Below are positions 2,216 to 23,033 of a stretch of DNA of 64,000 nucleotides, piece by piece. Each line of letters begins with the position of its first letter. The stretch's first letter is position 1. The stretch spans positions 131,040 to 195,039 of the IMG/VR virus record IMGVR_UViG_2510065010_000001; one strand, 5' to 3'. The stretch comes from a virus. Its lineage: Duplodnaviria; Caudoviricetes. The notes below the pieces were generated by a model. The model did not search any database, was not told where the DNA came from, and was given only the letters and a program-made list of their open reading frames with translations. A program made the position numbers and the translations under genes.

Positions 2216-2602
2216 ATGAGTGCTAAGTCTGATATTCTTGAAACAGAAATTATTAACCATTACTTCGGTGGAAGTGGAGCACCGCAGCCAACTCAATGGT
2301 GGTTAGCCATCTATAGTAGTGATCCGACGGATGCGATTACTGCAACAGTACCGACGGCTATTACCACACGTCTTGAAATTGATGGCTGGACTAGAAATGC
2401 GAATGAAGCCGTAAACACAAATAACTTACAGTTTCCTCCAGTACCCACCGGACAAACATGGACTGTCACACACTTTGCGATCTTCAACGCAATAACAGGG
2501 GGTAAGCCTCTATACCACAGCCCTTTTCGTATAGCAAAAACTTTACAGGAAGGCGACATTCTGTTTATTGCTGCGGGACAACTTGCTATCCGGGAGACAT
2601 AA
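2216..2602 (+). CDS. small phage tail/tail-fibre-associated structural protein
   Basis: Pattern SD.LE..I.NH...W.LA....DP.D...F......W.VTHFAIF.A.TGG..L is typical of a widespread phage tail protein family. Confidence 0.7.
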   Translation: MSAKSDILETEIINHYFGGSGAPQPTQWWLAIYSSDPTDAITATVPTAITTRLEIDGWTRNANEAVNTNNLQFPPVPTGQTWTVTHFAIFNAITGGKPLYHSPFRIAKTLQEGDILFIAAGQLAIRET

Positions 2603-3302: not shown

Positions 3303-3303
3303 C

Positions 3304-5022: not shown

Positions 5023-5032
5023 AATAAGCCGT

Positions 5033-5554
5033 ATGACTAAGTACACACCGATAATTATTAAATTTATTTCACCTGTTGTTGTTGAAGGACAAGAGCTTCC
5101 TCAACAATATCTAGAACCGCTTAAGTTAGCCATCTATAGTCCACAGACGAAGTTGTTGAGTGCCGAACAAGCTTTGCCACTGCCAACAGTTGTTACGGTC
5201 CCATTTGAAAAAGAGCTTCGTATGAAGCTTTTACCTTCTGCTGTGTATAACCCACACGGTCGATATAAAGTGAAGGTATATCAGGGGAAAAATAATGTAC
5301 CGCTCTATGAGATGGATTGGGTTGTTCCACAAATTCCTGAGCAGAAGTTTGTAGATGTTACACACTCGGAGACAGGAAGAGATTATCTCAATTTAGCCTT
5401 TTCAGAAATAATTTCTATTTCTCATGAAGGAGTCTGGGAAGTAGAAGACCAACATATTGTTTGGGTTCAAGACCGTCCCGTAATTGGGTCTTCCTATAGA
5501 GTTAAGTATCAGCCTGCTGTAACTTTAGGTGACCTGATAGTTTCTAATCCTTAA
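5033..5554 (+). CDS. hypothetical protein, probably structural
   Basis: 173-aa ORF between terL and the giant gene. Confidence 0.5.
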   Translation: MTKYTPIIIKFISPVVVEGQELPQQYLEPLKLAIYSPQTKLLSAEQALPLPTVVTVPFEKELRMKLLPSAVYNPHGRYKVKVYQGKNNVPLYEMDWVVPQIPEQKFVDVTHSETGRDYLNLAFSEIISISHEGVWEVEDQHIVWVQDRPVIGSSYRVKYQPAVTLGDLIVSNP

Positions 5555-5621: not shown

Positions 5622-8600
5622 GTGTTAGGTTTTAGTCCGATCAGCGAGTTAATACCTGCTTCGTCTGTTCCAACACGAACAGAAGATTTTTTGCGTTCAG
5701 CGGAATCGGGCACATTAACAGCAACTATATACTCGACGCCGCATGACCAGAGTTTATTAGAAAATGCTGGAAGAGTTGTCATCAACCGTGGCAAGCAGTC
5801 AGGTAGTACTGATAAATTAGACAGGTTTATTGAGAGTTCTTACTTAAAAGGATATGATGTTCGCACTTTTTCATCCCCTTCTGCTGAGCAGAGACTTCAC
5901 GCAAAAACTTACACAGCCATACTAAATCAGGTTGCTACCGCTCACGTTTCAACAGCTAACCTTTCTGAGACAGCTCTACAACAAACTCCTGGTTCTAGGC
6001 AAGAGCGTATAAGACAGTATTCAGGAAAAGTTTTTCAAGAAAACTTAGCATTTCAAACAACTGACAGGTCTTTAGTTGCACAGATTTCTCATTTTCAATC
6101 TGCAGTCTCTCAGAACCGAGTTCCTAGCTCTACTCAGAATGTTGCTGTAGGTGGAACTGCCTCGCAAGCTACTGCACATAGAATATCTAGAGCAAAGCGT
6201 GGCGATCGCGTTATTCTTAGTGGACCTTATTTAGATGACCCACTAGTTGTTGCTTCTCTGCTGACTGCAAAAGCACAAGGGGCAGAGGTAACTGTTTTAA
6301 GTGCTAATCCAAACACTCGGTTTGAAACAGCAACTAGTGGTACAGGTGAACATCGCGAAGCAGTAAACCAACTGTCAGCAGCCGGAGTTAAGGTTCTTAC
6401 ACCAACAGAGGATGACCCATTATTAATCCATACGAAAGCACTGGCGATTGTTGGAGAATCAGAGGCACTATTTGCGCTCGGCTCTCATAACTTCACTAAT
6501 GCGGCTAAGTCTAATCGATCAGTTGACCTTTTATTAATGTTGAATGACCCGCGTCTTGCAAAAGAACTTTATCACAACTTAAGCAATACGCAGGGTGTTC
6601 AACAACAGAAGAGGGAAGCGGTAGAGGTACCATCTTTACTTGAGCTAAAAATGACGCTTCAAGGAAGAGGTGGACTCTACCGCGTGTCCAGTTTAGGAGA
6701 ACGTGGACCAAACTTATCAATGCCGTTTTATCCAACTCGCATGGATGGGGCATTCTTCAAATTTTTTAATGATAAAAATACACCGTTTCCTAATCTTAAT
6801 ATCTATTCAAACTTATACGTATCGCGTACTGGTAGAACTGAGACGCCCGATGTTATTAAGCAATTAGATAGAGAAATCAGTGACCCAGGATTAGGATATT
6901 CGTTTAATAAACTTGTAGGTCAACCTATTTATGAGTCTGGATTTGGTATTATCGGCTCTGGTCTAAAATCTGTAGGGAAATTAATTGATTGGGCATTAGG
7001 GTTTGAAGCTCACAAAGAACGAGAAGACGAAAGAGATAACAAGAGTATAGGCGGCATTCGCAAATACTTCAGTTCTGCCTATCAGAGTAGTTATGGAAAA
7101 GAGTCTCAAGGACCTTTTGAAAGTATTTTTTCAAACTTTTACCAACTTGGAGCTGGAGCTGCTGCGACTCTATCTTTCTATGTAGGAGTGGACTTACCTC
7201 TCAAGTATTTTAAGGCAATGCTTGAGACTGATTATGCAGAAATGTTACTTCAGTTACCAGGTGATTCTCCAAAAAACTGGATGGCTAAAGGCGTATTGCA
7301 AGTAGCGCCAATGCTTCGAACAACGATGTTTGGTCCTGCAATTGGTGGTGCCTTAAATGAAGTAATTCAAGATACAACCACAACTCCCCAAAATTTTACT
7401 ACTCGACTGTATGACAGGCTTTATAAACCTGGGAATGTTCTAAAAGACCCAACCCGTGTAGCAGTAACTCAAGAGGGAAAGCTTACTAGCATTCAGTTAG
7501 GTGATGAAGGGTTATACGCAGCTTCTCAAATGTTGAGGCGTTTTGACCAAGTGCGGTTTGAGCAATTAACTGCTCCAATTTTAGAAGCGATTAACCCATA
7601 CACTGTTGATTCTATCCATTATCAGACATACAAACAATCCTTAACTCAGTTAACTGAAACTGTTGGAAAACCCACTGAGATTTTATTTCAACAACGGGCT
7701 GAAGACCCTAATGTTTATCGTCCTGTATTTAAGAACTTGGGTGTTGAGCGTGTTCGAGAAATTGCTAAACGCTATGACGACCTCGCATCTTTGCTGCCAG
7801 CAAACCTAACGTACTGGGTACCTCCCCTTCGCAGGCTATTAAACCTGGACGAGTTTGACCCAATGCAGCACATGACTGTGCGTGACGTTATTTCGTTCGA
7901 AGATGCAGTACTTTGGACAGACCGTTTCTATAAGCACACTGTTGCTGTTTTACAAAACCCGGCTCAGAATGTGCGTCAAATTCTAAAAGCTTGGTCGGGA
8001 GAGGTGGAACTTTTAAGAACTGAACGAAAACTGATCAAGGAACTGTCAAAAGAGTTTGCACCAACTCAGTTTAGCTTTCAGGCACAACACGCTGATGATG
8101 TTGCTGCTAATCTTAGTGCTCTTCATAGATATGGTGAAAACGTTTTAGACAGAACAAACCAGCAAGTTCAAACTATTTTGAATGACCAACGTGTTGTCAA
8201 ATACAGTAAGCAGCTGGAAGCTCAACGCAAATTACTGGAGCAATCACCCTTTCGTTTATTAAACGAGAATGTTGTCGTATCTGAAAGTAAGTACAAACCT
8301 TTTGAGTCGGATGCTCGACACAAAGTGTCAAACATGCGACGTATTTTGGCGCGAGTTGGCATAGCACTACTTGCGGATCGAATTGCTGACCAGTTTATAT
8401 TTCAACCTCTAGGAGCTAATTTATTAACTCAAATTAAGGCACACCAAGAACTATCTACTCAAGAAGGTCAAGTTGCACGATTTCAATTTACAGGAGACTT
8501 ATCTAAAGAGTTTGTTATTGCTAGTCAATTAGGCGCGGGTGCTGCAGTTGGATTTTTACTACCCGATGCTTTGGATAAAGGTAATCGTCCACAATCCATA

Positions 8601-11600
8601 AGTACAGTTCTAGACCCACTAAGAGAATTTCAGAAAAGTCTTAAGTTAACTGAGAGGTCCATATATAAGTCAGCTAGCGAAGAAATTCTTGAATCTGCTG
8701 ACATTCAGGTGTCTCGTCAAGCTTTGGCATCCACAAATAAACGGTACAAAACTCTACAAGCAGAAATTCAAGGTCTGAAGTATCGACGAGTAGGTTTAAG
8801 ATTCAATACTTCAGCAGCAATTGCTGCAGGACTTGTTGCTGGATTTGGACTCAAAACACTGTCAATGGGTGCTGCCTATGTTCTTAATTTAATAAATAAC
8901 AACACATCTGGCATATCGCCTTCAGGCATGGATGCTTACTTTTCATCCACGTTTGAGCGTTTAACTCAAGAAGGCATTGCAAAAGCGGTAACTCGCGAGG
9001 ACTATGTAAACTTAGCGATCGGTCATACTTTAGCCCAATCATTTTTGAACAGTGGAAAACAAAAGCAGAAAGTTTATACGGTTGCAACTCAGCTAACTTC
9101 ACCATTCATACAAGTTCCTTTTTTATTAAAAGCAGATTCCGTAACAGGAAAAGCTAGCCTTTCAGTTGGTCTACAGTTAATGCCTCTGTTAGGTTCTGGT
9201 GTGACTCCTGCTTTACCATTTTCAATCCGGCTTAATAAAGATGAGCTGGACTCATTCGACATTGGCGCTCAAGTACCAGGATTGTTTAGCTCTTTTCAAA
9301 TTGCTAGTGTCATGGCTAGAGGAATGCTCTCTGCTCTGACATTTGGAAACAGTCTTATTTACGAAAAAGAGTCTGTATATGAAAAAGGGATGGAGTTTGT
9401 AGGACTCAGTACCGCTCTTCTTTTAGGAGCTAACAAACTGTCTCAAGCAGATATTCGGTCAAAGCTTGCCAATAGAATTGGGTCTAACCACTCGTTATTA
9501 AAACAACTTGATGATGTTGATAAACACACTCGTGCTCTTAGACAAATAAGTAGAGGAGCCTTAGAGTTTTCGAATAAAACACTAAGGTTTATCTACTCTT
9601 TGCCCGTCGCGTTTGCAAGTAGTACTCTCCAAGCTGTTGCACCCATTATCAATCCACAGCTTGCTAATTTCAAAGTACCAAAAGGGTTACGTAAAGCAGC
9701 ACCTTACTATCTTAGTTTGGTGATGGCGAATCTTATGGCTGACCCTGATGGTGGTTATGTGGGTGAGTCTTTCAAAGATCCTTTGACAAAAGTTGGGGGA
9801 GTTCTTGGAGCAGGTTTATTAACAGGTGCAGTTTTAGATCGGATGGGAGTGTTTGCAGATACAGAGAGTTTAGCTGCTCAATTTCAGGCTAGTACTCGAA
9901 ATCTTTCTGCAAAAGAGTATAGGCAATTAGTTCAAGACTGGTTACCAAAGGCAAAGGCTGGAACATCTGCTGCAGACTATATTGACGAATTGGTTGAAAA
10001 CTTACGTACAGCTCCAGCTTCGTCGATTACTTCAAAAAGAGCAGTCTCACGTCAACTTTTATCTACTATAAGTGCTCCATCACTTTGGGAGCAGGCGCAT
10101 CGAATTTCAGAACTGAAATTTCTACACGAAGTGAGTGACGGAAGTTTAAAAACTCCAAATAAAATAGACCTTCCTTACAAGAATCTAAAATCTATTGGGG
10201 GAAGAATTGCTGCTGCTGCAATGGGGCTATTTGCCTTAAGAGGTACAGCATATGCGTTAGCTTCGATGATGCCAGAAGGGTTATTAAGTAATCTGTATAA
10301 TACTCCTGTGTTAGGTGCAACTTTACGATTACTTTCAGGAGTTGAGCCAGAGCCAAAGTCTAGACAAGGGGTTTTAGCCGGAGAACGTCCGAGGGGCGCG
10401 TATGGTGTTCTTAATAAACTGGCTAAAACTTTGTCTTTTGGTTTGTTTGAATTACCAAAAGCGTCAGGGTTGTACAGTGATACTACAGACCCATTCTTAA
10501 ACCTGATTGGACCTCTCGGAGCTACTTTTAAGTCTCATAAGACTAACTACTATATTCAGTATGCTTCTTCATTTAGTGATATTTCTGCTACTGCCTATGA
10601 TTTTGTCCGAGGTGGACTATCAACAGATTTACTAGCTAGAACCTACGGTTTGATGCATTTAGGTCAAGCTAAGTCGTTAAGTGAAGCATTAGCACAAATA
10701 AGAGGTGCAGCCCCACGTCAAAAGCTTGCGACTTACGAAACGATCACACCATATGAAATGGATGCGGTTCAAAGTGCTGGTATTTCACGCGCATTGGGAC
10801 TAAGACAATTTAGACTCCAACATGCTTCGAATCAGAGAGCGTCGGAATTACTGTTAGATTTCTTGAAAGAAGGCTATGCATTTGGCGAACTAGGGCATGA
10901 CATTATGCCTGGTTATCAGATGCAATACAGAGGGTATAAACCCTTTGATTTTCTGGCGCATAGTGACTTTATTTATCAAAAGTCAACTATAGAAGGAGGT
11001 GAACCACGACAACAAGACCCCTACGAAGCCTTTCTAAACTGGTTTCAAAAGTCACAGTGGAAGAGTCGAAAGTTAGCTGAAAGCTATAACCCTTTTGATT
11101 TAACAAATGGGCTGGGTTCGTTTTCTAACGCAGCCTGGTTAACAGCCCCTCTTGGGGTGTTACTAACATTTGGTGCAATAAGTGCTGGCACAGAAATCAC
11201 TGCAAAATTGTCTGCATATGTAGCACAAACAGAAATTAGTAAACTTACAGAAGCTTCTAAGTTAAGTCAGGGTAAGCAGCTAACAGCCCCCTATCGATAC
11301 GTCTTCACTTCTGGGAACCTTCCTGGTTCTGGCAAATCTACCATTTTTCAGATAGACAAACTCAATCGGTATAGCAATGTACATCGCTTACCGATAGACG
11401 TGAGTGAAATTATCGATGGGTCACCCTTTGAGTTAGTATCTGGTATCAATAAGTCTTACCAGAATTTGCACAACAGAGTTGGCAAGTACTTTACAGGTTC
11501 TTATCTAACCCAAGTTAAAAACCTTTTAACGCAGGTTGAAGGAGCAACAGATACTCAGAAAGCACAACTTACGCGAACGTTTAAGTCCACGGTGCAAAAC

Positions 11601-14600
11601 GAGGTTACTAAAATTGTTCGTCAACAGATGCAACGGGTCGTACTCAAAGGAACAGACCTAAACTTGTACAGAGCGTTTTACGGGGGTAGTAGTCGAAATG
11701 CGCCGTCTAATATCCGTGCCTACGTTGATGAAACCAAGTTGTTATTAGGACAAGCTTTAGATGAAGTATTAGACGAAGTTAATAAACTAGGTGACCTTAC
11801 AGCAGAATCTAGATACTTGCAGATCTTAAAATTAAACGCCCGGTTTGAGCAAAGTGAGGGGTTGCAGCGATTTTTAGGCAGATTGTCTGAACCGATTCGC
11901 GGCTCTTATGACTTGGATACAGACCGCCGCTCCTGGATGAAGTGGGTAGACCAGCAACTTTCAGGAGAAGATGCCAAGTCATCAGTACCGCAAGGAAAGG
12001 TTCAACGCTCTCTTGGAAACTTTGCATTTAATCAACCAGCGTTTACCCGTCCTTGGACTGAAGGGTTTCTTACTACAACTATAAAAGGTTTGAAAGGAGC
12101 CTCCATGCTGACAGGTGCTTGGGTTGCAACCGGGCGTTCCCTTTACGAAATATTTGAGTCGGGGGCAATTTTATTGGGGGGTTCTTCACAACCAATCTCA
12201 ACGAGGTTAGCGGCTGGTGAACAGATGACATCGGGTGCTTTGTACTGGGGGATTTCAGCCGGGATTGCTGGTGTGGCAGCGATGATCGGTTTAGGACCTC
12301 TGGGAGCAATCGCTTTAGGCATCGGTTCTTTAATTGGACTAGATCATCTTAAAGCAACCAGTACGCCACTTCGTCAACTAGAGCAGGGGTTAGTTAAATC
12401 AGTTGGTAGATTCTTAGCACAGCCTGTTGAGTCAGCAGCTAAACTAGCTGATTCATTTGGTTTAGGTTCATTCGTCAGAACCGCTGGTAATGCGATCGCA
12501 ACTCCAATAAGTTTCATCGCTTCAACCGTGTCTGCTCCATTTCGGTTTTTACTAGAGAACTTCGCAGCACCTTTTTTACAGGAACAGAATTTAAGTCTTT
12601 TCTCGGATTCACTTCCAGTACAAGTTGTAAAAACTTTGCTTTTACCTAGAAGTGTTTACACTCAGTTCGACTCGTATGAACCACGCTCTTCAACCCTTGC
12701 TGGGCGGGAACCTTTCGTTGGTGGGAACATTGCCCTTCATTTAAAACGGCAACAGACTGCAAACATTCAAAACGCCATATCTGCAAACACATTTATAGAT
12801 GAGACTACTGTTTATCCTTTGGCTATCGGTAGATTAAGCAGTTCTGGAGATAGGTTAACTGAGCAAAAGTATTTTGACTCATCAGCGGGTGGTCGAGTGC
12901 TTCAAGCTTTTGGTCCAGGTAACTATCGGATTAGTAATTCACTCCGGTTAGCCTTGCAGCGGCGACAAGCTATGTACCATGCAATGGTAACGGTTGCTGC
13001 TATAGCTAGACCACCTGAACCTGCTAACCTCTCAAGTTACAGCTTTTTACACGCTGCCTCTAGCACTTTATTAAAATTACAACTTGAAGATCTTAGCCAA
13101 CCTATCACTATTAAATTAAGTCAGCAGCTTTCTGACTCATTCATCACACTTAAGGGACTTTACAGTAAAGTCTCTGAAGCTTTATGGAAACCAGCAAACT
13201 GGTTACTAACTGTAGCAAACAGAGTGAAGTCTCGCTTATCTTATTTAGTTGAACCAATCACAAAGTTCAAGTTAGACTTCTCGTTTCTAAAAATTAATAA
13301 ACCTGATTTCAGGTTTAATGTACCCAAAGTAGGTGTACCTAACGCTCTTAAGTCAATCAGACTACCTAGTGTAGATTTTTCACGACTTACTGATAAAATA
13401 TTTGATTCTTTAGACTGGGCTTTAGACAAAATCTCAGATTTTAATCTTGGAAGTAAAGTCCCGTCTTACGATATTGGAAACTTTTTCCCTAACGGTTCTT
13501 TGCCATCGTTTAGTCGAGTTACCACAAAGTTATCTAGTACTTTTTCTTTAGTATCAGAAAAACTTGACCCAGTTATTAATCGCTTGAAGGTTGCTTTTTC
13601 TAATATTAGTGCAGCTAATCTACCTAATTTTACAACTCCCGATGTTAACGTATCTGGCATAGCAGACCCTCTTGAGAAAGTAGTTAAAACTGCTACTCGA
13701 AATGTTCAGAAGGCTATACCAAGAATTGGATTTGCATTATCAGATGCTTTAGCGTCTGTTCCAAAAGGTTTGTCCCCTGGACTATTTTTTGGTGGGTTAG
13801 ACTTTCTCTCAGCATTTTTAGCTGATGCGCGTTTGAAATCTTTGGATGAAGCAGACCCTTTTAAGGAGTTTCAGAGAGCTTATCAAGAAGCTGGAGCATC
13901 ATTTGTTGGATTCACTGTTGGGGGTTTTGTTGCAAGTTTAACTCGAAATCCCTTACTGAGTTTCGGGGCTTCTATTCTAGGTGGAATATTAGGATTAAAT
14001 ATTGGAGATTCACTTGCAAGGTCTGCCTACAAAAATCAGGAAGAAAATCCAGTACTTACTTATATTCAACAGTCGTTAACAACAGCTAGCGCAGTTACAT
14101 TAATCCAATTACCAAATCTTATTAAAAGTCGCTCAGTAGCTCGGACTGCTCTTCTTAATATCGGTTTGAGCTTTGCGACAGGTGGGCTTGGTCCGGTGAC
14201 TCAACTTTCAGCTGTACATAGTTTTTCCAACTTTATTAAGTCATTTCAGGAACAGCCAGGTAAGTTATCTACCTGGATAGCCAGAACAAAAGAGTTGATT
14301 CAAGATACTGCTGAAGCGTTTAAGTTTTGGAGTAGTGGCGAGGTTTCAGGTCAATACGTTAAAGCTACGAGATCGTTAAGTCGAAATATTCTTTTGGGCC
14401 TTGGTACGGAAGCTGACATTCCGTTGACCAGTGTTCGTACCCGTTCTTCTGGTAGTCGTTTCTCGATTGAAGGCAGCTATCAAAGTAAATACCGCTCTAT
14501 TCAACTGAGTAAGGCAACGGCAAGAGTTTTAGGAAGAGAAGCTGTTGGACGTAGGGTACGCCCCACTGATTTAGCTGAAGCTCGGTTCACACTGCTGCAC

Positions 14601-17600
14601 GAAGCTTCTCATGCTTTAGATGACTTGGGTCAAAAACAGCGTTTAACTTTGGATGATTTAGACCAGTTTATTTATTCACACGCCACAACTCGGTCAAATG
14701 TTCAAGAACTTAAGGACTTGCTAACTAGATCTAGTCAATCATCCACTGTCGCTTTGTATCAGAGGTTTTCCGGTGATGTAAACGCTAGCTTTTTGCAGCA
14801 GGTTTACAGTGATGAGTTATCTGCCAATGTTCGAGCGTTAGATGAATATATCAAGCGTTATCCCGGTCAGGTAGATGACTTGCTAAAAGTCCTGCGTAGG
14901 ACTAGTAATGCAGGCATCACAGACAAATATGAATCAATTCTAGAGTTAATAAAAGATCGAACGAGTTTTGTTGATCCAGGTGTTCGATACAGACGTGCAG
15001 CTAGTAAAGCTTTTCGTGTAGAACGAGCAGTTTTAGGTGACGTACTAAATGCACCTAAAAGGTTTGTTAAAGGTTTCGTTTCTCATAAGTCTACTGCCCC
15101 ACTTATTAATTTACGGTTTGCTGGACAAGCGCCAGATATGTCTGGGTGGAACTTAGCAGTCCAAACTTTTAACGCTGATTTTTCTGACCTTCCAAAACCT
15201 GTTGGAAAAATTCTTGGAGGGGTAGCAAAAGGAATTGGTTCTTACAGAATGCTTCGTTCCGGTTCAAGCATTCTTGCAGCTTCTCTGAGAAATGTAGCAT
15301 TAACTACGCTTGGTTCACTTGAGAAAGTTATTAACCCTGCCTACGCTGCAACCTACAATCTAAACTCTAAAATGTCTGCTGGCGGGGTTAGTGCTATTGG
15401 ATTGGTTGATTCTGTATTTATAGGAGTTGATTTATTTCAAGGTATTCAGTCCAACGCTGACTATGCTGCTCTTAATAAAAAGCTAAGACAGAACCCGGCA
15501 CAAGTGCAGGCATTTAAGCGAGAGATTATTAAGCTACGAAATAGTCAATTAGGAGGATTTCTGGGAGCAACACTAGGCGCTGCTGCTGGTTTGATTTCGA
15601 AAAATCCTCTCTATGGATTTATCCTGGGAGGAGCTGCCGGACTTGTTGCACCTTTGGTTGGATTCTTTGGACTCTCAGCTTATTTAGGTCAACAGGATTT
15701 AGAGTATGCAGCTAACGGTCATGCTCTATATGACCCAATGCAGTCACCTTCAATTTACTTACGAGTTAATAAACAATTGCTAGCAGAGAAGGAAGCAACC
15801 ACAAGAGTGCTGCGTCCTTTAAGGTCTAGTATTAAAAAGTTTGTTTCTCAAACAATGCGGTTAGTTGGACGAGCTGTGTTTCAGGCAGCTAAGCTTGGCT
15901 ATAATGCTTTGTCGCATCTGACTGCACTGGGGGTTGCGGCTACCACAACAACGGCTGCATTTTTAGGCTCTTCTCTGGCACTTGCAATTCCAGTCTTAGG
16001 AAAGGCTTACAACTTACTAGAGTTTGGCGCAAAAGGATTTGGACGATTTGCCTACTCTCTTGGAAAACCGTTATTTCCAGTGGTTGCATACCCTATTCGG
16101 CAACTGGGTAAACTCACTAGAAAAGGTATAGCTTTAAGCGCGACGGTTGTTAACAAAGTGACAGAATTTACTACCAATCAGGTAGCTAAACTAGGCAGAT
16201 TCAGTCAGCAAATTCTTTCAAATGTTTGGTCGTCTGGAGTGTATGTTGCAAGTCAAGCTTTGCGTATGGCTTCAAAAGCTGAGAGCTACTTAGGAGAAGC
16301 TGCCGCTAAGTTATATCAATATATTCCTCAATTTTCTTACTGGTCGGATGACCTGTTTCTTCCAGCCTTAAAATTTGCAGGTAGTACTGCACTGAAAACT
16401 GCACAACTCTCGATGGCTGCTGGTCGGGCTGTATTAAGTTCTTCATTTAGCCTGGTTAAATCAACAGTCAAAGCTTTTACACAGACTGTTAGGTTTGCTT
16501 CCGAGAATTCTTACAAGCTAGCCAAACCTATTATTAATGCATCAATCCAAGGATTACAGCTAGGAGTATCAGCAGCTTTCGAAATTGCTCGTCCGATAGC
16601 TAGCTTAACTAATAATCTTTTACGCTCTTCTTTTTACTTAGGTTCTAGTGTTCTTAAAGCTGGCGTTCATACTGTCTCGCTTCTTGCTCGAACAGGTTTT
16701 AACGTTTTAAGTAAAGTAACACAAGCACTGGCACAGTCAGCTGGATCTGAACTGCTACGAATCGGGGGTGGTATCTATTCAGAGTTAGCTACGTTCGCAA
16801 AGTATATACCTGGTTATCTAAAAACAAAAGGTAGTTTGCTTCGTCAGCTTGGGCGGTCTGCGTCATCTCTAGTTAAAGCTACAGTCAATATAGGTTCAGC
16901 TATAGCTCTATCTGCGGGTAAAGCTTTAGTAAGAGGCTCTAGGTTTGCAGCATCGGTAATAGGTTCTTCTGCACAAGCACTATGGCAAACCACGCAACGA
17001 CTTACAGGTTTAAGGTCAGTTTTTCCATTTTTAACAAATTTGGCAATAGGTGCAACAAACCTGCTCTACAAGACGTTAGGAAAACCAGCGATCGCTGCGA
17101 CATCCCTTGCCTTAAAACTAGGTGGTAGAGTAATTACCACTTCAGCAAAAGCTGCATTCCACTTATTAAAAACTACTCATTTGCCGAAAGGGTTTGTCTC
17201 CAAGACTATTTCTGCACTTAGAGATATTGGAGAGTATGCTTCTATAACCACGATGAGTGCCGCTCGGTCTTTTATTAAAACTACAGGTGCCTATCTTCGG
17301 GAATCATCTAAACTTTTAAGCAATCTGGGTACTCTTACAGGACAGACAGCTAAATTCTTATTTGACTCTTCTGTAGCAACAACCAAAGCTGTAGCAACGT
17401 TTGGAAAGCACATAATTAACGGTACGGGTCAAGTAACGTCTTACGCTCTTAGATCAACACTTGCCGCCGCCCGGTTTGCTAAGTCAACTGTTAAAAGTGC
17501 CGGAAAGTTATTAGCGTTTGCAGGTAGTGTTACTAACCAACTGGTTGACCGAGGTATAAGACAACTTGTTAGATACACACCAGGTCTTGCCAAAACCATA

Positions 17601-20600
17601 TTAGCTCACGGATATAAAGAGACTTTCTTAAACGTTCTCAGCCCTGCTCTTGATCTTGCCACAGTTGGTGGAGGAGTCTTTAAGGCAGGACAACTTAATG
17701 CTTACAGCTCTCTTTCAGAAGTAGAAGAAGCTTACATCCAAGCAGGTGCAGGGCGTGGCAGTTTAGTAGGCTCTGTTTTTGGACTCTTTGCAATGGGTCC
17801 GTTAGGCGATGTGGCTGGGTCTTTGTTAGGACAGTTTATTGGGTCTGAGGCTGCTAAAGAACGTGCTCGACTTCGTTACGAAGCTAGAGATTACGGTATC
17901 GTCCCTATTCTGGAAGATTTCGTCGAACCTTTAACGAGAGATACCGTGCTGGCTGGATATGTAGGGAAACAAGTAGGTAAGATGGGCAGTGCTGCTGTGC
18001 AGTCTTACCTACAAAATTCCTTAGCAAAGATAGCCAGTGGAAAAGCTAATAAGCTCGATCGCATGGTTACAGCAGCGTCAGCTGCTTACCGACAAGGATT
18101 CCGCTCCCAAGTAGCACAAGCAACTGGTCGATTTAGTAGAGTGCTGGGTCATGCGCCAGGTGCAGCCTCTATTGGAAAACTAGTTGGTGGAACGTCTAAA
18201 GTTGTCACAAAAACTGCTGGAAAGATTCTTCAAATTCTCGGACCTGCAATAGACGTTACTCGGATAGGAGCTGGATATGTGCAATCTCAATCGGCACGAA
18301 CTGAGGCTGAGTACCAAGTTTCTGTTCGAAGAACATCTGGTGGATTAGGTTCTATCGCAGGAGGTTTAATAGGGGGTGCTTTAGGAGGACCGATCGGTGC
18401 AGTCGCAGGTAGTCTCTTAGGTGATTTCGTTCTTGATAAAGTTGGTGAGAATCTGGCACAAGAAGCATACATGCGTAATGTGAGCGCTGGAACAATCACT
18501 ACAGGGCAAATTGCAGGGGGTGTAATTGGTGCTGGAGTAGGGTTATTAGCTGGGGGGTTATTAGTCGGTGCTGGATTAGTGGCAGCAGTGGCGACAGCTC
18601 CTATTCTTTTAGCAGCAGCAGGTATTGGTCTTTTGGTAGGTGCTGTAGCAGGCGGATACGCTATGCTCACTGGTAAGAAAAAAGACGAATCAAAAACTCG
18701 CCTGGTTCAAGTAGCTCAACGTCGCCGCGCAAGATGGAATACACCTGATGCTCTAAATCAACCCATTAAAAAGCAAAGCATTATTAAACAAACTGATAAT
18801 GAAATACTCGATGTAACCAAACGTTCTAAAGAGCGCTTAGCAATTGCACAGTCTTATTTGAGTCCTACTCAGCAACCTGAGTCAGCTACTAACGTAATGA
18901 CTCAAGCTAAAACATCTAACCAGACACAGAGAGACCAGCAACGTCAATGGTGGTCTGGTGTTTATGAAGGAGTTGTTGCAGTCGGACGAAAAAGTATGGA
19001 GTTGGTTGAAGGAGTGCGATCGTACATCAAACGTACCTACTCTGATTTTCAAACGATTCTCTCTAAAGTGTCAGAGTTTAAGGCTTCACTGTTTAATAAA
19101 TCCCAAAAAACGTCTGCTAAAGAATCTTTACCAACTACACAAGTTGAAGTAAGCGACCCTACTGATACGTCTACGGTTACTGGTACACCAGTAACGGTTA
19201 AGGGAGGTGTGAAACTTAACGAGGCAGATGCTTACCGACTTGCAGCACTTGCAATCATGGAAGCTCCAACTCGGATGGGTCGTTTGGATGTTGCCCAAGC
19301 GGTTTTCAATAGAATAAACGCACCTAAAGTAGGAGCCGCTTCTTATGGTTCTAGTGTTACAGCAGTAGTGTTTGCGTCTGGACAGTTCGAACCGTATTTT
19401 GGTGTAAGTGCTTCTGAAATTAAGAATAGGTCTGATGCCGTCTCTATTCTTAAAAGAAAACGAGGGATGAGCAGTGCCCAAGCGAACCAGTTATTAAACC
19501 AGTTTTTTGCAGATGTGGCTGACCCCGCAAAGATGGCTCAAGCCAGAAAACATGTTGGAGGACGTACCGACTTTAAAGGTACAACCATGTATAGCAACAT
19601 GGTTAAAGGTGAGGACAAGCTACGAACTTATGGAGAGAATTTCTTCCACATTGGTTCGGGTCAAAGCTATAAACAGCTTGCAAAATTGGAACAGCTCGGA
19701 CCTTCTGTAATTGTTAAAGAAGGACAAGAGTTGCCTAAATCGGTTGCAGGTTCCTCTCCTCCACAAAATTTATCAGGAAGATTATCTGGCAAGGTAGTTC
19801 CGTTTAAGGGCATCATCGTTACTTCTGCAGTAGATGCTTCAGGTGAACCAGGTCTTGACTATGTTGTTGAGTCAGGTAAGCGTGGTGCTCAGTTTGGTTC
19901 CCTAACTTCTGGACAAGTTATTGAAGTAGTAGCTAATCAAAACTGGGAGTCACATTTAGAGCGAGGAGATACCCGTAGAGGTTATGGTAATCGGGTAATT
20001 GTTCGTAGTAAAGATTCAAAAACTGGAGAATTCGTAGACATCCTTTACGCCCACTTAGACCGTGTGAACGTGAAGAAAGGTCAGAGTGTTGTGGTAGGTA
20101 GCGTTCTAGGTACTCAAGGTAGAACTGGTTCGACAACAGGTGCTCACGTTTCAGTTGACTTTTATGCAAAAGATGCAAATCACGCTTCAAGAGCATCCAT
20201 AGCGATGCGCGACCGTTTAGCGCGTGAATTATCTAGAGGTGCCCCAAATCTTAATAAACAAGTGAAACAAACACAGCAAGCAGCCGCAACTCAGGCACCT
20301 GCTACTGTACCTACAACGGCTTCTACTATTTCTAAGTCTGCACCTACTGTTTCAACTGAACAAAATGGTCAAATTGTAACAACCTCAAAGCTGAATACTA
20401 CAAGACAATCAGCTACTACAAAGTCCGTTGATAAGATTGCATCTAGTACGCCAATTCGTATTCCCTCTGGTTTGAATGCTAGAGGAAAAAAAATGGCGCA
20501 ATACTTAGCAAATCCAAATGTTCGAGCGGTTTTAGACACGATCGCTTATGCAGAAGGGTTGTGGGGTAAACCCGGTGGTGGCTATGACTTAGGCTTTAAC

Positions 20601-21476
20601 TACCGCAAGATTTCTAATATGTCGAAGCATCCGTTTCACGGAAACGAGAGAACACCAGGGGGTGGTAGCTCTGCCAGTGGACGTTATCAAGCTATGGGAC
20701 ACACATGGGCAGAAGCAGCAAGGAATTATGGACTGAAAGATTTTAGTCCTGCATCACAAGATGTTTTTGCTGTCGCAAAACTAGCAGACCGAGGTATTTT
20801 AGAGCGTATTGCAGCTGGTAAGATTAACGATCCATTTGTGCGCCGTCAGTTAGGTTACGAATGGGCATCGTTTGAAGGTAATCCGTATGGACAAGGAACC
20901 TCAATGGGTAGTTGGAGTAAAGCGATTCCTTTCTTTCACAAACGAGTAAAAGCTTACCGTAACCCTATTGGTCCAGAGGAGATGGAAAAGGTAGCAGAAT
21001 CGTTTACACCTCCGTCTGAAAGAGTTACACCTACTGAACAATCTGTCCCAGCTTCAGCACCAACTGAAACTATAAAACCTGCTCATGTTGTTTCACCTTC
21101 AAACCAAAAGCGACGTAGGAAGAACCTACATTCATCTGTGCACACGCCTGCTGCAGATGTGAATAAACTGAATCAAGCGGCAGTTGTTCAGCCTATGAAT
21201 CTTGGCGTTGTTGAAAAGATGCTGGCAGTTGTTAACAACGTATCGGAGCAGGCAAAAAAATCAATCAAGCCCCCAAGCAATAAACAAATTCAGGTTGCTA
21301 CTGCACAGTTACCTCAATCAGTAGCCTCACTCGATACAACATGTAATTCTCAAAAGCATGATTGCCTGCAAGCAGTTGTTGCAGGCAATCATATAGACTT
21401 AAGCTCTTTAACAGGATACCTAAAAGATTGGGTATCTGTTACGGGGATGACATCACCTTTAGAGTTTGCAAGTTAA
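5622..21476 (+). CDS. giant (5284 aa) tape-measure-like/ejected virion protein: tandem PLD-like domains, HExxH motif, glycine zippers, SleB-type hydrolase, M23-like peptidase, lambda-type lysozyme
   Basis: HAK..STANLS and HTK..GSHNFT; LLHEASH; LAALAIMEA..VAQAVFNR..GQFEP; GYGNRVIV..YAHL..GRTGSTTGAH; RAVLDTIAYAEG..ASGRYQ..DFSPASQD. Confidence 0.8.
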   Translation: MLGFSPISELIPASSVPTRTEDFLRSAESGTLTATIYSTPHDQSLLENAGRVVINRGKQSGSTDKLDRFIESSYLKGYDVRTFSSPSAEQRLHAKTYTAILNQVATAHVSTANLSETALQQTPGSRQERIRQYSGKVFQENLAFQTTDRSLVAQISHFQSAVSQNRVPSSTQNVAVGGTASQATAHRISRAKRGDRVILSGPYLDDPLVVASLLTAKAQGAEVTVLSANPNTRFETATSGTGEHREAVNQLSAAGVKVLTPTEDDPLLIHTKALAIVGESEALFALGSHNFTNAAKSNRSVDLLLMLNDPRLAKELYHNLSNTQGVQQQKREAVEVPSLLELKMTLQGRGGLYRVSSLGERGPNLSMPFYPTRMDGAFFKFFNDKNTPFPNLNIYSNLYVSRTGRTETPDVIKQLDREISDPGLGYSFNKLVGQPIYESGFGIIGSGLKSVGKLIDWALGFEAHKEREDERDNKSIGGIRKYFSSAYQSSYGKESQGPFESIFSNFYQLGAGAAATLSFYVGVDLPLKYFKAMLETDYAEMLLQLPGDSPKNWMAKGVLQVAPMLRTTMFGPAIGGALNEVIQDTTTTPQNFTTRLYDRLYKPGNVLKDPTRVAVTQEGKLTSIQLGDEGLYAASQMLRRFDQVRFEQLTAPILEAINPYTVDSIHYQTYKQSLTQLTETVGKPTEILFQQRAEDPNVYRPVFKNLGVERVREIAKRYDDLASLLPANLTYWVPPLRRLLNLDEFDPMQHMTVRDVISFEDAVLWTDRFYKHTVAVLQNPAQNVRQILKAWSGEVELLRTERKLIKELSKEFAPTQFSFQAQHADDVAANLSALHRYGENVLDRTNQQVQTILNDQRVVKYSKQLEAQRKLLEQSPFRLLNENVVVSESKYKPFESDARHKVSNMRRILARVGIALLADRIADQFIFQPLGANLLTQIKAHQELSTQEGQVARFQFTGDLSKEFVIASQLGAGAAVGFLLPDALDKGNRPQSISTVLDPLREFQKSLKLTERSIYKSASEEILESADIQVSRQALASTNKRYKTLQAEIQGLKYRRVGLRFNTSAAIAAGLVAGFGLKTLSMGAAYVLNLINNNTSGISPSGMDAYFSSTFERLTQEGIAKAVTREDYVNLAIGHTLAQSFLNSGKQKQKVYTVATQLTSPFIQVPFLLKADSVTGKASLSVGLQLMPLLGSGVTPALPFSIRLNKDELDSFDIGAQVPGLFSSFQIASVMARGMLSALTFGNSLIYEKESVYEKGMEFVGLSTALLLGANKLSQADIRSKLANRIGSNHSLLKQLDDVDKHTRALRQISRGALEFSNKTLRFIYSLPVAFASSTLQAVAPIINPQLANFKVPKGLRKAAPYYLSLVMANLMADPDGGYVGESFKDPLTKVGGVLGAGLLTGAVLDRMGVFADTESLAAQFQASTRNLSAKEYRQLVQDWLPKAKAGTSAADYIDELVENLRTAPASSITSKRAVSRQLLSTISAPSLWEQAHRISELKFLHEVSDGSLKTPNKIDLPYKNLKSIGGRIAAAAMGLFALRGTAYALASMMPEGLLSNLYNTPVLGATLRLLSGVEPEPKSRQGVLAGERPRGAYGVLNKLAKTLSFGLFELPKASGLYSDTTDPFLNLIGPLGATFKSHKTNYYIQYASSFSDISATAYDFVRGGLSTDLLARTYGLMHLGQAKSLSEALAQIRGAAPRQKLATYETITPYEMDAVQSAGISRALGLRQFRLQHASNQRASELLLDFLKEGYAFGELGHDIMPGYQMQYRGYKPFDFLAHSDFIYQKSTIEGGEPRQQDPYEAFLNWFQKSQWKSRKLAESYNPFDLTNGLGSFSNAAWLTAPLGVLLTFGAISAGTEITAKLSAYVAQTEISKLTEASKLSQGKQLTAPYRYVFTSGNLPGSGKSTIFQIDKLNRYSNVHRLPIDVSEIIDGSPFELVSGINKSYQNLHNRVGKYFTGSYLTQVKNLLTQVEGATDTQKAQLTRTFKSTVQNEVTKIVRQQMQRVVLKGTDLNLYRAFYGGSSRNAPSNIRAYVDETKLLLGQALDEVLDEVNKLGDLTAESRYLQILKLNARFEQSEGLQRFLGRLSEPIRGSYDLDTDRRSWMKWVDQQLSGEDAKSSVPQGKVQRSLGNFAFNQPAFTRPWTEGFLTTTIKGLKGASMLTGAWVATGRSLYEIFESGAILLGGSSQPISTRLAAGEQMTSGALYWGISAGIAGVAAMIGLGPLGAIALGIGSLIGLDHLKATSTPLRQLEQGLVKSVGRFLAQPVESAAKLADSFGLGSFVRTAGNAIATPISFIASTVSAPFRFLLENFAAPFLQEQNLSLFSDSLPVQVVKTLLLPRSVYTQFDSYEPRSSTLAGREPFVGGNIALHLKRQQTANIQNAISANTFIDETTVYPLAIGRLSSSGDRLTEQKYFDSSAGGRVLQAFGPGNYRISNSLRLALQRRQAMYHAMVTVAAIARPPEPANLSSYSFLHAASSTLLKLQLEDLSQPITIKLSQQLSDSFITLKGLYSKVSEALWKPANWLLTVANRVKSRLSYLVEPITKFKLDFSFLKINKPDFRFNVPKVGVPNALKSIRLPSVDFSRLTDKIFDSLDWALDKISDFNLGSKVPSYDIGNFFPNGSLPSFSRVTTKLSSTFSLVSEKLDPVINRLKVAFSNISAANLPNFTTPDVNVSGIADPLEKVVKTATRNVQKAIPRIGFALSDALASVPKGLSPGLFFGGLDFLSAFLADARLKSLDEADPFKEFQRAYQEAGASFVGFTVGGFVASLTRNPLLSFGASILGGILGLNIGDSLARSAYKNQEENPVLTYIQQSLTTASAVTLIQLPNLIKSRSVARTALLNIGLSFATGGLGPVTQLSAVHSFSNFIKSFQEQPGKLSTWIARTKELIQDTAEAFKFWSSGEVSGQYVKATRSLSRNILLGLGTEADIPLTSVRTRSSGSRFSIEGSYQSKYRSIQLSKATARVLGREAVGRRVRPTDLAEARFTLLHEASHALDDLGQKQRLTLDDLDQFIYSHATTRSNVQELKDLLTRSSQSSTVALYQRFSGDVNASFLQQVYSDELSANVRALDEYIKRYPGQVDDLLKVLRRTSNAGITDKYESILELIKDRTSFVDPGVRYRRAASKAFRVERAVLGDVLNAPKRFVKGFVSHKSTAPLINLRFAGQAPDMSGWNLAVQTFNADFSDLPKPVGKILGGVAKGIGSYRMLRSGSSILAASLRNVALTTLGSLEKVINPAYAATYNLNSKMSAGGVSAIGLVDSVFIGVDLFQGIQSNADYAALNKKLRQNPAQVQAFKREIIKLRNSQLGGFLGATLGAAAGLISKNPLYGFILGGAAGLVAPLVGFFGLSAYLGQQDLEYAANGHALYDPMQSPSIYLRVNKQLLAEKEATTRVLRPLRSSIKKFVSQTMRLVGRAVFQAAKLGYNALSHLTALGVAATTTTAAFLGSSLALAIPVLGKAYNLLEFGAKGFGRFAYSLGKPLFPVVAYPIRQLGKLTRKGIALSATVVNKVTEFTTNQVAKLGRFSQQILSNVWSSGVYVASQALRMASKAESYLGEAAAKLYQYIPQFSYWSDDLFLPALKFAGSTALKTAQLSMAAGRAVLSSSFSLVKSTVKAFTQTVRFASENSYKLAKPIINASIQGLQLGVSAAFEIARPIASLTNNLLRSSFYLGSSVLKAGVHTVSLLARTGFNVLSKVTQALAQSAGSELLRIGGGIYSELATFAKYIPGYLKTKGSLLRQLGRSASSLVKATVNIGSAIALSAGKALVRGSRFAASVIGSSAQALWQTTQRLTGLRSVFPFLTNLAIGATNLLYKTLGKPAIAATSLALKLGGRVITTSAKAAFHLLKTTHLPKGFVSKTISALRDIGEYASITTMSAARSFIKTTGAYLRESSKLLSNLGTLTGQTAKFLFDSSVATTKAVATFGKHIINGTGQVTSYALRSTLAAARFAKSTVKSAGKLLAFAGSVTNQLVDRGIRQLVRYTPGLAKTILAHGYKETFLNVLSPALDLATVGGGVFKAGQLNAYSSLSEVEEAYIQAGAGRGSLVGSVFGLFAMGPLGDVAGSLLGQFIGSEAAKERARLRYEARDYGIVPILEDFVEPLTRDTVLAGYVGKQVGKMGSAAVQSYLQNSLAKIASGKANKLDRMVTAASAAYRQGFRSQVAQATGRFSRVLGHAPGAASIGKLVGGTSKVVTKTAGKILQILGPAIDVTRIGAGYVQSQSARTEAEYQVSVRRTSGGLGSIAGGLIGGALGGPIGAVAGSLLGDFVLDKVGENLAQEAYMRNVSAGTITTGQIAGGVIGAGVGLLAGGLLVGAGLVAAVATAPILLAAAGIGLLVGAVAGGYAMLTGKKKDESKTRLVQVAQRRRARWNTPDALNQPIKKQSIIKQTDNEILDVTKRSKERLAIAQSYLSPTQQPESATNVMTQAKTSNQTQRDQQRQWWSGVYEGVVAVGRKSMELVEGVRSYIKRTYSDFQTILSKVSEFKASLFNKSQKTSAKESLPTTQVEVSDPTDTSTVTGTPVTVKGGVKLNEADAYRLAALAIMEAPTRMGRLDVAQAVFNRINAPKVGAASYGSSVTAVVFASGQFEPYFGVSASEIKNRSDAVSILKRKRGMSSAQANQLLNQFFADVADPAKMAQARKHVGGRTDFKGTTMYSNMVKGEDKLRTYGENFFHIGSGQSYKQLAKLEQLGPSVIVKEGQELPKSVAGSSPPQNLSGRLSGKVVPFKGIIVTSAVDASGEPGLDYVVESGKRGAQFGSLTSGQVIEVVANQNWESHLERGDTRRGYGNRVIVRSKDSKTGEFVDILYAHLDRVNVKKGQSVVVGSVLGTQGRTGSTTGAHVSVDFYAKDANHASRASIAMRDRLARELSRGAPNLNKQVKQTQQAAATQAPATVPTTASTISKSAPTVSTEQNGQIVTTSKLNTTRQSATTKSVDKIASSTPIRIPSGLNARGKKMAQYLANPNVRAVLDTIAYAEGLWGKPGGGYDLGFNYRKISNMSKHPFHGNERTPGGGSSASGRYQAMGHTWAEAARNYGLKDFSPASQDVFAVAKLADRGILERIAAGKINDPFVRRQLGYEWASFEGNPYGQGTSMGSWSKAIPFFHKRVKAYRNPIGPEEMEKVAESFTPPSERVTPTEQSVPASAPTETIKPAHVVSPSNQKRRRKNLHSSVHTPAADVNKLNQAAVVQPMNLGVVEKMLAVVNNVSEQAKKSIKPPSNKQIQVATAQLPQSVASLDTTCNSQKHDCLQAVVAGNHIDLSSLTGYLKDWVSVTGMTSPLEFAS

Positions 21477-22070: not shown

Positions 22071-23033
22071 ATGCGTTTATCCTTATCAAAAGGTTCAAGT
22101 GGGGTTATTAATCTCCCTAAAAACTTGAAAGTGAATGCACAAAGACTTCAGGGTGTTTTAGTAACAGTCCCGAACACCGATGATGAAGTTTTTGTGTGGA
22201 GGAATAATACCTGGTTACCAGACAAGTTTTTGCCCAGTATAGGGATAGAAGGACTTACTCTATCTAATAATGCGATCGACGCTGACCACGATTTGAATTT
22301 TAGTGCGGGTGCTGCCCTAACTACGATTGGACAAAGAAGAGTCGCAAGACTCGATACAACTTTAGTAAAACAATTAGATAGTTCTTGGGAAGCTGGCAAC
22401 AACAGCGGTGGTTTATTTAATGATGTAAACCTAGAAGCACCCAATACTTACCATTGCTTTCTTTTAGTTAATAACTCTACAGGAGAAGTGGATGCTGGTT
22501 TTGATGATAATCTAAATGCAGAAAATCGCCCAGCCGGATGGTCTGCTAGACGAGTTGGTTCCATTTTATATAGAGGTTCCAGCATTGTTGCGTTTAATCA
22601 GTTTGGGTGGTTTTTTGAGCATAAAACTCCCATAGTTGATTTGAATGGTGTTGAAATAGCCACAACTAGTACTCTATATACGTTAAGTGTACCAACGGGA
22701 TTACCTGTGGAGGCTTCCTTTATTTTTGCTGGTGGTTTAGCTGGTGATATTGAAGGCGGGGACGTTAGTATTTCTGTGCAATCACCGGACCAAAACACGC
22801 AGACTCCAAATTTGGGTCCACACGTAGGTTCCTTTCGGGGAACTTATGGCAGCTTTTTTGTGTTTACTCCAGTAGACCTCACTGACACAACTACGGTTTT
22901 ATCGTTACTCAGGCACACAAATGCAGAAGCAAAGATAAAGATGATTAGAACCGGAGAATACTTAGGGAGTGCTTGGCAGACCACTTTAATAACTACTGGG
23001 TGGTATGACCATGCTTTGCTAAGGGGATACTGA
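22071..23033 (+). CDS. tail fibre/spike-type protein, paralog 1
   Basis: Shares EGL, TYH.FL, .DAGFD, P.GW..RR.GSI and GW.D motifs with the next two genes. Confidence 0.65.
   Translation: MRLSLSKGSSGVINLPKNLKVNAQRLQGVLVTVPNTDDEVFVWRNNTWLPDKFLPSIGIEGLTLSNNAIDADHDLNFSAGAALTTIGQRRVARLDTTLVKQLDSSWEAGNNSGGLFNDVNLEAPNTYHCFLLVNNSTGEVDAGFDDNLNAENRPAGWSARRVGSILYRGSSIVAFNQFGWFFEHKTPIVDLNGVEIATTSTLYTLSVPTGLPVEASFIFAGGLAGDIEGGDVSISVQSPDQNTQTPNLGPHVGSFRGTYGSFFVFTPVDLTDTTTVLSLLRHTNAEAKIKMIRTGEYLGSAWQTTLITTGWYDHALLRGY

Follow-up and report, generated by a model that had tools for sequence, protein, structure and literature searches.

The window analyzed here is a stretch of 64,000 nucleotides (positions 131,040 to 195,039 of IMG/VR record IMGVR_UViG_2510065010_000001) that belongs to a complete 5.53-Mb cyanobacterial chromosome with 18 phycobilisome-family matches. 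The element in question is a large contractile-tailed prophage within that chromosome, and one of its genes, here called the giant (5622..21476; all coordinates are window positions on the plus strand unless stated otherwise), encodes a protein of 5,284 amino acids (aa). On balance we lean towards the view that this protein is a polyvalent megaprotein which a Ma-LMM01-type contractile-tailed cyanophage carries in its virion and ejects, and not a plain tape measure. The chain would be packed in the particle, in the head or the tail lumen, and would exit through the tail tube largely unfolded, before or together with the DNA. Its C-terminal lytic transglycosylase, with SleB-like and M23 modules, would locally open the thick cyanobacterial wall, and Gly-zipper segments would enter the cytoplasmic membrane and lengthen the conduit. 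An N-terminal nuclease-type enzyme would then work in the host cytoplasm, with a zincin domain splitting the chain into working pieces. An earlier reading made from the letters alone (the sequence-only reading) had proposed a polyprotein that is ejected, breaks through the wall, enters the membrane and may deliver enzymes; as a proposal this is still the best reading, carried by the operon position, the scarcity of cysteine, a pair of hydrolases and a zincin-like domain.

Envelope crossing by large cyanophages is poorly understood, and the cyanobacterial envelope is thick and multilayered. Ma-LMM01-type phages infect bloom-forming, toxin-producing cyanobacteria. The gene costs ~16 kb and recurs at a constant position in several phage genomes, and its family comprises at least 51 diverged clusters. 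If packaged and ejected, its product would be among the largest delivered phage proteins, and if the proposed scheme is true it would be a natural single chain joining wall hydrolysis, membrane insertion, self-processing and a delivered nuclease.

Position of the gene behind the terminase

The giant is a single unbroken open reading frame (ORF) of 5,284 codons with a GTG start. We consider this start sound because homologues align from residue 2 on; an ATG two bases 5' of it lies in another frame that closes immediately. The plus-strand operon 5' of the gene encodes a portal, a major head protein, a 939-aa tail sheath (phrog_30392, E 6.1e-57), baseplate wedge proteins of gp25/gp6 type, a VgrG-like spike (weak DUF2345 match) and a baseplate-wedge fibre-network protein, and its order is head, sheath, baseplate, fibres, TerL, then giant. 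The tail sheath and baseplate wedge genes are the reason for calling the prophage contractile-tailed. The large terminase gene TerL (3304..5022; 572 aa; phrog_17415, E 2.9e-21) has a product 36% identical to the Ma-LMM01 terminase, and one 173-aa ORF (5033..5554) intervenes between it and the giant, in line with the sequence-only description of an uninterrupted ORF two genes past terL.

A comparable arrangement recurs in related phages. Ma-LMM01 encodes gp119 (211 aa) and then gp120 (2,898 aa) behind its terminase gp118; Microcoleus phage My-WqHQDG has TerL, two small ORFs and then an ORF of 4,151 aa; and on a 195-kb IMG/VR contig (L007) fibre genes precede TerL, which is followed by a counterpart of the 173-aa ORF and then a giant, as here. 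BLASTP links the giant to gp120 at E 2e-7, plus weaker colinear segments, and gp120 as a tblastn query reaches the giant in a 75-kb region at E 1.5e-4. The My-WqHQDG ORF is matched both in the phospholipase D (PLD) domain (E 3e-7) and in the core described below (E 6e-4). Both proteins are true relatives of the giant, with colinear weak core homology and a gene that follows TerL; identity is ~21–28% over short stretches only. We conclude that the family diverges fast, since a collection-wide tblastn at standard thresholds missed the links to Ma-LMM01 and My-WqHQDG. The two relatives also differ from the giant in their recognizable domains: the My-WqHQDG ORF has PLDc_2 (E 1.1e-9) at aa 1043-1176, not at the N-terminus as in the giant, and gp120 yielded no Pfam domain at all and no detectable hydrolase domain. 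Both are annotated 'hypothetical protein' in GenBank phage records, and no discussion of either was found in the accessible literature; the available text of PMC3426561 and PMC9229316 contains nothing on this gene or on tail length.

The 173-aa ORF matched no Pfam or PHROG family. Its counterparts (36% identity in L007, 28% in the metagenome locus L009) adjoin the 5' side of the giant in both, even where TerL has moved, and on this conserved adjacency it is possible that the ORF encodes a dedicated partner or chaperone of the giant.

Cysteine avoidance

The giant contains two cysteines in 5,284 residues (Cys 5241 and 5248), both in the last 45 residues. The average cysteine content is 1.12% for the remaining prophage-region ORFs of 150 aa or more and 0.95% for a host sample; at 1.12%, the binomial chance of two or fewer cysteines in 5,284 residues is about 2e-23. 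The sheath, spike and baseplate proteins of the prophage are also cysteine-poor, and its replication proteins are not. The property extends to the family, in which 30 of 46 long proteins lack cysteine, including one of 7,866 aa, and the other 16 have one to three. We infer selection on chains that leave the cytoplasm and pass a narrow channel, unfolded or refolding outside. The almost complete absence of cysteine from chains of up to 7,866 residues offers a clean and testable mark of tail-transiting proteins.

The same prophage encodes a second giant, a PLD-headed protein of 3,311 aa located 41,117 to 31,182 bases before the window start, which has no cysteine. The PLD domains of the two giants are weakly alike around the motifs (E 0.002–0.003), and given this weak similarity they are not recent duplicates. 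With a second cysteine-free, PLD-headed giant in one prophage, this phage group seems to make a habit of packing very large proteins of the PLD-headed type.

Domain architecture

Residues 1-335 (5622..6626) form a two-lobed PLD/Nuc-type phosphodiesterase domain, as seen by alignment, profile search, structure prediction with AlphaFold2 (AF2) and Foldseek. The PLD superfamily is marked by two HxK...G(S/T)xN half-sites, and some of its branches also lack the Asp of HxKxxxxD. The giant has two HxK...(S/T)xN half-sites, H93/K95...T111-x-N113 and H270/K272...G287-S288-x-N290. K95, T111, H270, K272, G287, S288 and N290 are invariant in all 14 family N-termini, and H93 and N113 are conserved in at least 90% of this 14-sequence alignment. 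The HxKxxxxD Asp is missing from both half-sites (Ile100 in the first, Val277 in the second), and its column is not conserved as Asp. Searched against PDB sequences, the giant's N-terminus by itself reached Nuc at E 0.013 and the 14-sequence profile reached the Nuc endonuclease 1byr at E 3.9e-11. The profile further matched mitochondrial cardiolipin hydrolase (the PDB name; chains 9lkx and 4ggj, E 1.5e-5), which we take to be Zucchini/PLD6, as well as polyphosphate kinase (PPK) and, on the first lobe, BfiI (E 0.011). The AF2 model of aa 1-345 (predicted local distance difference test (pLDDT) 91.7, predicted TM-score (pTM) 0.90) aligned in Foldseek with two-lobed PLD enzymes over the full length (7e0m, E 6.8e-17, query-normalized TM-score (TMq) 0.67), and its 179 matches at E ≤ 0.001 included PLD, PssA, PPK, PLD3/4 and vaccinia F13. 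Pfam gave no PLD match at E ≤ 0.1 on the giant's own N-terminus, and PLDc_2 was present in 6 of 12 relatives scanned. The tandem PLD-like N-terminus proposed earlier is thus confirmed by the alignment, the profile match to Nuc and the predicted fold.

Judged from sequence, this enzyme seems more likely to be a nuclease than a phospholipase, because the family member P0033 carries an unrelated SNase nuclease domain (aa 41-148, E 5.8e-20) in the identical slot directly before the core, in the place of the PLD domain. The giant shares the HxK and GSxN motifs and the fold of the Nuc/Zucchini/PLD3-4 branch. It differs from Nuc, a dimer of single domains, in having both half-sites in one chain and in lacking the conserved HxKxxxxD Asp.

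Behind the PLD domain lies the family-defining core, a colinear region of ~2,100 aa (aa ~365-2480; 6714..13061) delimited by a BLASTP map against 53 proteins. The core had no Pfam or PHROG match and no informative Atlas match, and a profile of aa 395-800 found no match in the PDB. An exhaustive phmmer search with aa 1-1200 retrieved 51 cluster representatives at E ≤ 0.001 (44 at ≤ 1e-10), of which 43 are 2,862–7,866 aa long and the eight shorter ones may be fragments. The search for homologues suggested by the sequence-only reading therefore uncovered a whole family, with a fixed genomic position in several phages. BLASTP mapping showed the core to be colinear in most members; many keep the PLD domain and others have it replaced or displaced, and the C-terminal Gly-zipper and hydrolase modules occur in subsets of the family only. 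In the 12 members scanned with Pfam, M23 was found in four and VanY in two, and SNase, DPBB_1, Hydrolase_2 and PP_kinase_C_1 in one each; the N-termini of four members without a standard PLD domain (P0028, P0035, P0041 and P0045) had no Pfam match at E ≤ 0.01. As far as these domain matches go, enzyme modules are exchangeable and are placed before and behind a shared core.

Relatives were also sought by other routes. A word-indexed protein search found five (3,294–5,260 aa) from the single sequence and four from the alignment. One of the relatives, P0002 (3,294 aa, on a 91-kb contig), is 99% identical to the giant, and spans aa 1991-5284 only, possibly because the gene call is truncated or because a near-identical phage carries a broken copy. 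Against 50,697 phage records, tblastn gave no match for aa 1-1000 at E 1e-5 and none for aa 1001-4000 at E 1e-3, and the architecture was accordingly not found to be common among described tape measures. Another 519 phage records matched the giant through the lysozyme domain only, many of them annotated endolysin. Scanning a species-representative genome collection with the core alignment returned 123 pattern matches, none of which was confirmed, and a scan of 400 other genomes of the same phylum did not bring up the core; core loci were recovered once in viral contigs and twice in metagenome contigs. Two metagenome sources label relatives 'muramidase (phage lysozyme)' and 'murein DD-endopeptidase MepM/ murein hydrolase activator NlpD'. 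BLAST found no internal repeats in the giant.

Residues 2893-3121 (14298..14984) form a candidate domain of zincin-like, gluzincin type: HEASH stands at aa 2993, and DELSAN follows ~85 aa downstream. The HExxH motif reported from the letters alone is real and is the only one in the giant; 20 of the 46 long family members have one, mostly in a comparable place after the core, and many in a context like ARFTxLHExxHA. An 11-row alignment places the (D/E)ExxAN Glu ~85 residues past HExxH in nine rows; the rows were chosen for having HExxH, so the invariance of that motif in them is circular. The domain had no Pfam or PDB-sequence match. Its AF2 model (pLDDT 80.5) brought up IrrE/PprI (best, E 0.05), selecase, abylysin and lethal factor as the top Foldseek rows, and 24 of the top 25 VIA-align rows were metallopeptidase-type (M1, M13, M48, M56, minigluzincins, SprT), with ERAP1, BepA, neprilysin, PepO, jannalysin, BlaR1, HtpX and Spartan among the top rows and one row, 3cmn, described just as 'putative hydrolase with a novel fold'. 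From the predicted structure, the domain is probably zincin-like and of the gluzincin kind.

Three membrane-type regions are spread along the chain: a Gly/Ala-rich hydrophobic segment (aa 2206-2240; 12237..12341), a Gly-zipper and hydrophobic segment (aa 3305-3356; 15534..15689), and conserved Gly-zipper modules with a hydrophobic block (aa 4040-4350; 17739..18671), the latter two recognized by hydropathy and GxxxG. The first has a Kyte–Doolittle 19-residue mean of up to 1.92, is uncharged and is of a length that suits one or two membrane spans. Only three blocks passed a strict hydropathy cut (aa 2206-2240, 3330-3356 and 4296-4350), all uncharged and Gly/Ala-rich, the last of them 55 residues long. 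GxxxG occurs 60 times in the giant versus 35.5 ± 5.2 in shuffles, forms four Gly-zipper modules and clusters at aa 2701-2800, 3301-3400 and 4001-4400, so that the hydrophobic GxxxG segments claimed earlier hold up. Between the second and third regions runs a basic amphipathic helical stretch (aa 3400-4000; 15819..17621) that is Ala/Ser/Thr/Gly-rich and acid-poor, with a net charge of about +10 per 100 residues and nearly no acidic residues. Among relatives, no other part of the giant is as poorly conserved or as rich in indels. The helical hydrophobic moment is highest at aa 3401-4000. The amphipathicity that the sequence-only reading had seen is thus present there, and the tape-measure character that it had attached to it does not extend to the protein as a whole.

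Wall-hydrolase domains occupy the C-terminal part. A SleB/CwlJ-like (Hydrolase_2) match at aa 4552-4611 (19275..19454; Pfam E 0.001, below threshold) had no PDB sequence match at E ≤ 1; the region is 62–70% identical in P0003 and P0004, and the one Hydrolase_2 match among the 12 scanned relatives had E 4.3e-4. A Peptidase_M23 domain follows at aa 4755-4850 (19884..20171; Pfam E 8.8e-10; 39.1 bits against a gathering cut-off of 28.7). The third domain, at aa 4966-5092 (20517..20897), is a lambda-R-type lysozyme/lytic transglycosylase that matched 1am7 and 3d3d at E about 1.5e-12, chain 8kea_A of the A-1(L) hub at E 1.2e-11, and phrog_90 ('endolysin') at E 4.8e-27. Its AYAEG motif, the Glu of which is presumably catalytic, is conserved in P0003 and appears as YSEG in P0005. 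The chain ends in a tail with a W-x-S-x-T-G-M motif (aa 5262-5284; 21405..21473), of which W5270, T5274 and G5275 are invariant in a five-sequence alignment; the motif is found in the closest six to seven relatives only.

Weighing the readings

Several observations weigh against a packaged and ejected polyvalent protein. We know of no contractile-tailed phage that needs a long ejected conduit protein beyond the tape measure. Two metagenome loci depart from the gene order described above: L009 keeps the small partner and has TerL inverted, and L008 has neither TerL nor the small ORF within 8.8 kb upstream of its giant. The main text of the Ma-LMM01 transcriptome paper names five late genes and does not mention the giant's homologue. 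For the HExxH domain, Foldseek returned nothing at E ≤ 0.001, and the VIA-align Z values (5.6–6.9) lie in a range that common arrangements can give. The Hydrolase_2 match scores 20.1 bits against a Pfam cut-off of 27 bits. In active M23 enzymes the final HxH comprises the catalytic His and a zinc-ligand His; the giant has H4842-V-S4844 (20145..20153) where ShyA has H-L-H, a substitution shared by its closest relative P0003, whereas P0004 and P0005 keep HxH. By sequence, the hydrolases therefore look like one fully canonical enzyme (the lysozyme), one variant (M23) and one tentative case (SleB-like), so that of the three C-terminal wall hydrolases named in the sequence-only reading the lysozyme stands, M23 stands with HxS, and the SleB-like domain falls below the Pfam cut-off. 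Finally, the core makes up ~40% of the giant and has no recognizable fold or function, and its central job may be unrelated to entry.

Tape-measure proteins can combine several activities; T5 pb2 and TM4 Tmp are reportedly multifunctional. We hold it rather unlikely that the tail tape measure is the giant itself or a fragment released from it (aa ~3400-5284), with the upstream part riding as cargo. The piece in the tube lumen would set the tail length, leave first and open wall and membrane. Such a role would fill a gap, as the interval from the tube-like gene to the VgrG-like spike lacks a recognizable conventional tape-measure gene: the region 13,219 to 5,547 bases before the window start encodes ORFs of 168, 574, 678 and 395 aa that are proline-containing, not long helical, and match no tape-measure family, the only match being phrog_34291 (function unassigned). 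T4-type phages have hub and ruler proteins that are not helical-looking, however, so the 678-aa ORF could still be the ruler. The amphipathic stretch at aa 3400-4000, the strongest of its kind in the giant, varies in length among relatives as a ruler might, and the zincin domain just upstream could release the piece; yet this basic stretch is also the least conserved and escapes BLAST in Ma-LMM01 gp120. Hydrolase domains and membrane-channel roles are on record for tape measures (the discussion of the P7-1 paper, PMC13338283, in its available text, citing TM4, T5 and HK97), but the sole tape-measure family match of the giant, phrog_4070 (E 1.2e-4), falls on the M23 domain, and no Pfam tape-measure family was matched.

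Position and length also argue against this role. Instead of lying between tube and hub, the gene comes after the fibres and TerL and ~20 kb downstream of the sheath gene. In the Anabaena myophage A-1(L), a 1045-Å tail and a tape-measure protein with C-terminal modelled residues 666-689 correspond to about 1.5 Å per residue (PMC10966104, as far as its text was available); at this value the giant would span ~790 nm and its relatives 430–1,180 nm. With a gene outside the tube-to-hub block, relatives of 2,862–7,866 aa and a family defined by a ~2,100-aa core, the earlier tape-measure framing is mostly wrong for the whole protein. As the phage has a tail sheath, the proteins to compare the giant with are those of myoviruses. 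A released segment that serves as ruler is compatible with a packaged, ejected polyvalent protein.

A more sweeping proposal is that Ma-LMM01-type cyanophages replaced a separate tape measure and ejection proteins by one cysteine-free, tail-threaded megaprotein that would be ruler, wall drill, membrane conduit and nuclease carrier at once. The zincin would cut the parts on entry, the core would be a new trans-envelope channel builder, and the swapping of terminal modules (PLD, SNase, M23, VanY, lysozyme) would track host envelope and defence. We regard this as distinctly unlikely.

It is very unlikely that the giant is instead a late intracellular or membrane-anchored factor whose PLD domain degrades host DNA and whose hydrolases, exported by way of the hydrophobic segments, lyse the cell from within. 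Its C-terminal domains do belong to endolysin families (phrog_90; the 519 phage records reached via the lysozyme), and hydrophobic segments lie ahead of the hydrolases. Endolysins are small, however, and a 5,284-aa carrier with a conserved 2,100-aa core would be hard to explain; four phage genomes have the gene next to TerL within the virion operon; the family-wide avoidance of cysteine resembles the structural and not the replication proteins of the phage; and Ma-LMM01 keeps gp120 even though this protein has no detectable hydrolase domain. A structural, non-ejected protein, in which the enzymes are decorations and the core forms a body inside the head, a remnant of a scaffold or a fibre on the outside, would suit the position among structural genes, the large core without enzymatic signatures and the neighbouring fibre-type gene (2216..2602; Pfam Gp80, E 7e-31), but is highly improbable given the lack of fibre-like or internal repeats, Gly-zipper blocks and zincin and nuclease modules that make little sense there, and C-terminal hydrolases that imply contact with the host wall.

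Relation to known systems

The closest concept for a packaged and ejected giant is that of the polyvalent proteins, which carry lysozyme and zincin domains and were proposed to be injected with the DNA and self-processed (Iyer et al. 2017, PMC5512222). In the available text of that paper, they resemble the giant as many-domain phage giants that are encoded with late virion genes and frequently have lysozyme domains; a SpoIID-like transglycosylase is given as Pfam PF07486, and the zincin is proposed to cut the chain. The giant likewise joins at least five distinct domain types in one chain within a structural operon. There are also differences: the terms PLD, phospholipase D, transmembrane and M23 were not found in the main text of PMC5512222 as available, nor was the 2,100-aa core seen among the domains described in it. 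The Pfam models for the polyvalent-protein zincin (MPTase-PolyVal) and the LPD domains did not match the giant at E ≤ 0.1, and the only link, an Atlas lead to LPD23, scored 0.88, under the tool's 0.9 line.

The best precedent for a packaged giant is gp69 of the podophage JC1, a DarB-like protein of 4,515 aa that was found in virions by mass spectrometry (PMC9144972), so a protein of the giant's size can be a virion component. According to the accessible parts of that source, gp69, of the Bcep22-like podophages, is encoded where the morphogenesis module ends, fills roughly a fifth of the genome and differs from the giant in belonging to a podovirus and in having a HepA (helicase-type) superfamily entry in the conserved-domain table. 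For the wall-hydrolase end, the nearest parallel is the hub protein gp15 of A-1(L) (PDB 8kea), which like the giant combines a lambda-type lysozyme and an M23-type peptidase on one protein. Both gp15 domains match the giant (8kea_A; E 1.2e-11 for the lysozyme and 0.0012 for M23), and in the portion of PMC10966104 available, gp15's endoglucanase domain and its peptidase domain lysed host cells in assays. There gp15 is an 899-aa hub with a barrel domain, whereas the giant's enzymes end a 5,284-aa chain encoded away from the baseplate genes. The multifunctional tape measures T5 pb2, TM4 Tmp and P7-1 TMP resemble aa 3400-5284 in having, in this order, a helical stretch, a membrane-active segment and a wall hydrolase (PMC13338283, available text). 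The giant differs from them in its gene position, in being 4–8 times longer and in its additional PLD, core and zincin modules.

No description of the family, the core, the PLD/SNase head, the membrane modules or the cysteine avoidance was found in the searchable literature, and no proteomic data on the family came up there. Giant injected polyvalent proteins are known as a kind, and the family with its core appears to be undescribed.

Neighbouring genes

Within this contractile-tailed phage, an ORF ahead of TerL (2216..2602) matches the Pfam family Gp80 'podophage GP4 fiber I protein' at E 7e-31, and its counterpart in a related IMG/VR contig is 50% identical. The idea prompted by this match, that the giant might be a podophage internal protein, was dropped because the 939-aa tail sheath and baseplate wedge genes are present. 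No tRNAs were found in the window. Directly past the giant lie three tandem paralogous genes (22071..24951) encoding proteins of 320, 318 and 321 aa with a mutual identity of 32–38% and no Pfam or PHROG match. Altogether, the plus-strand operon holds five more ORFs past the giant, up to a strong terminator-like G+C-rich hairpin with a T tract (25748..25765) that marks its end. At this hairpin the operon meets replication genes on the opposite strand, where a minus-strand ORF of 1,523 aa contains 32 cysteines.

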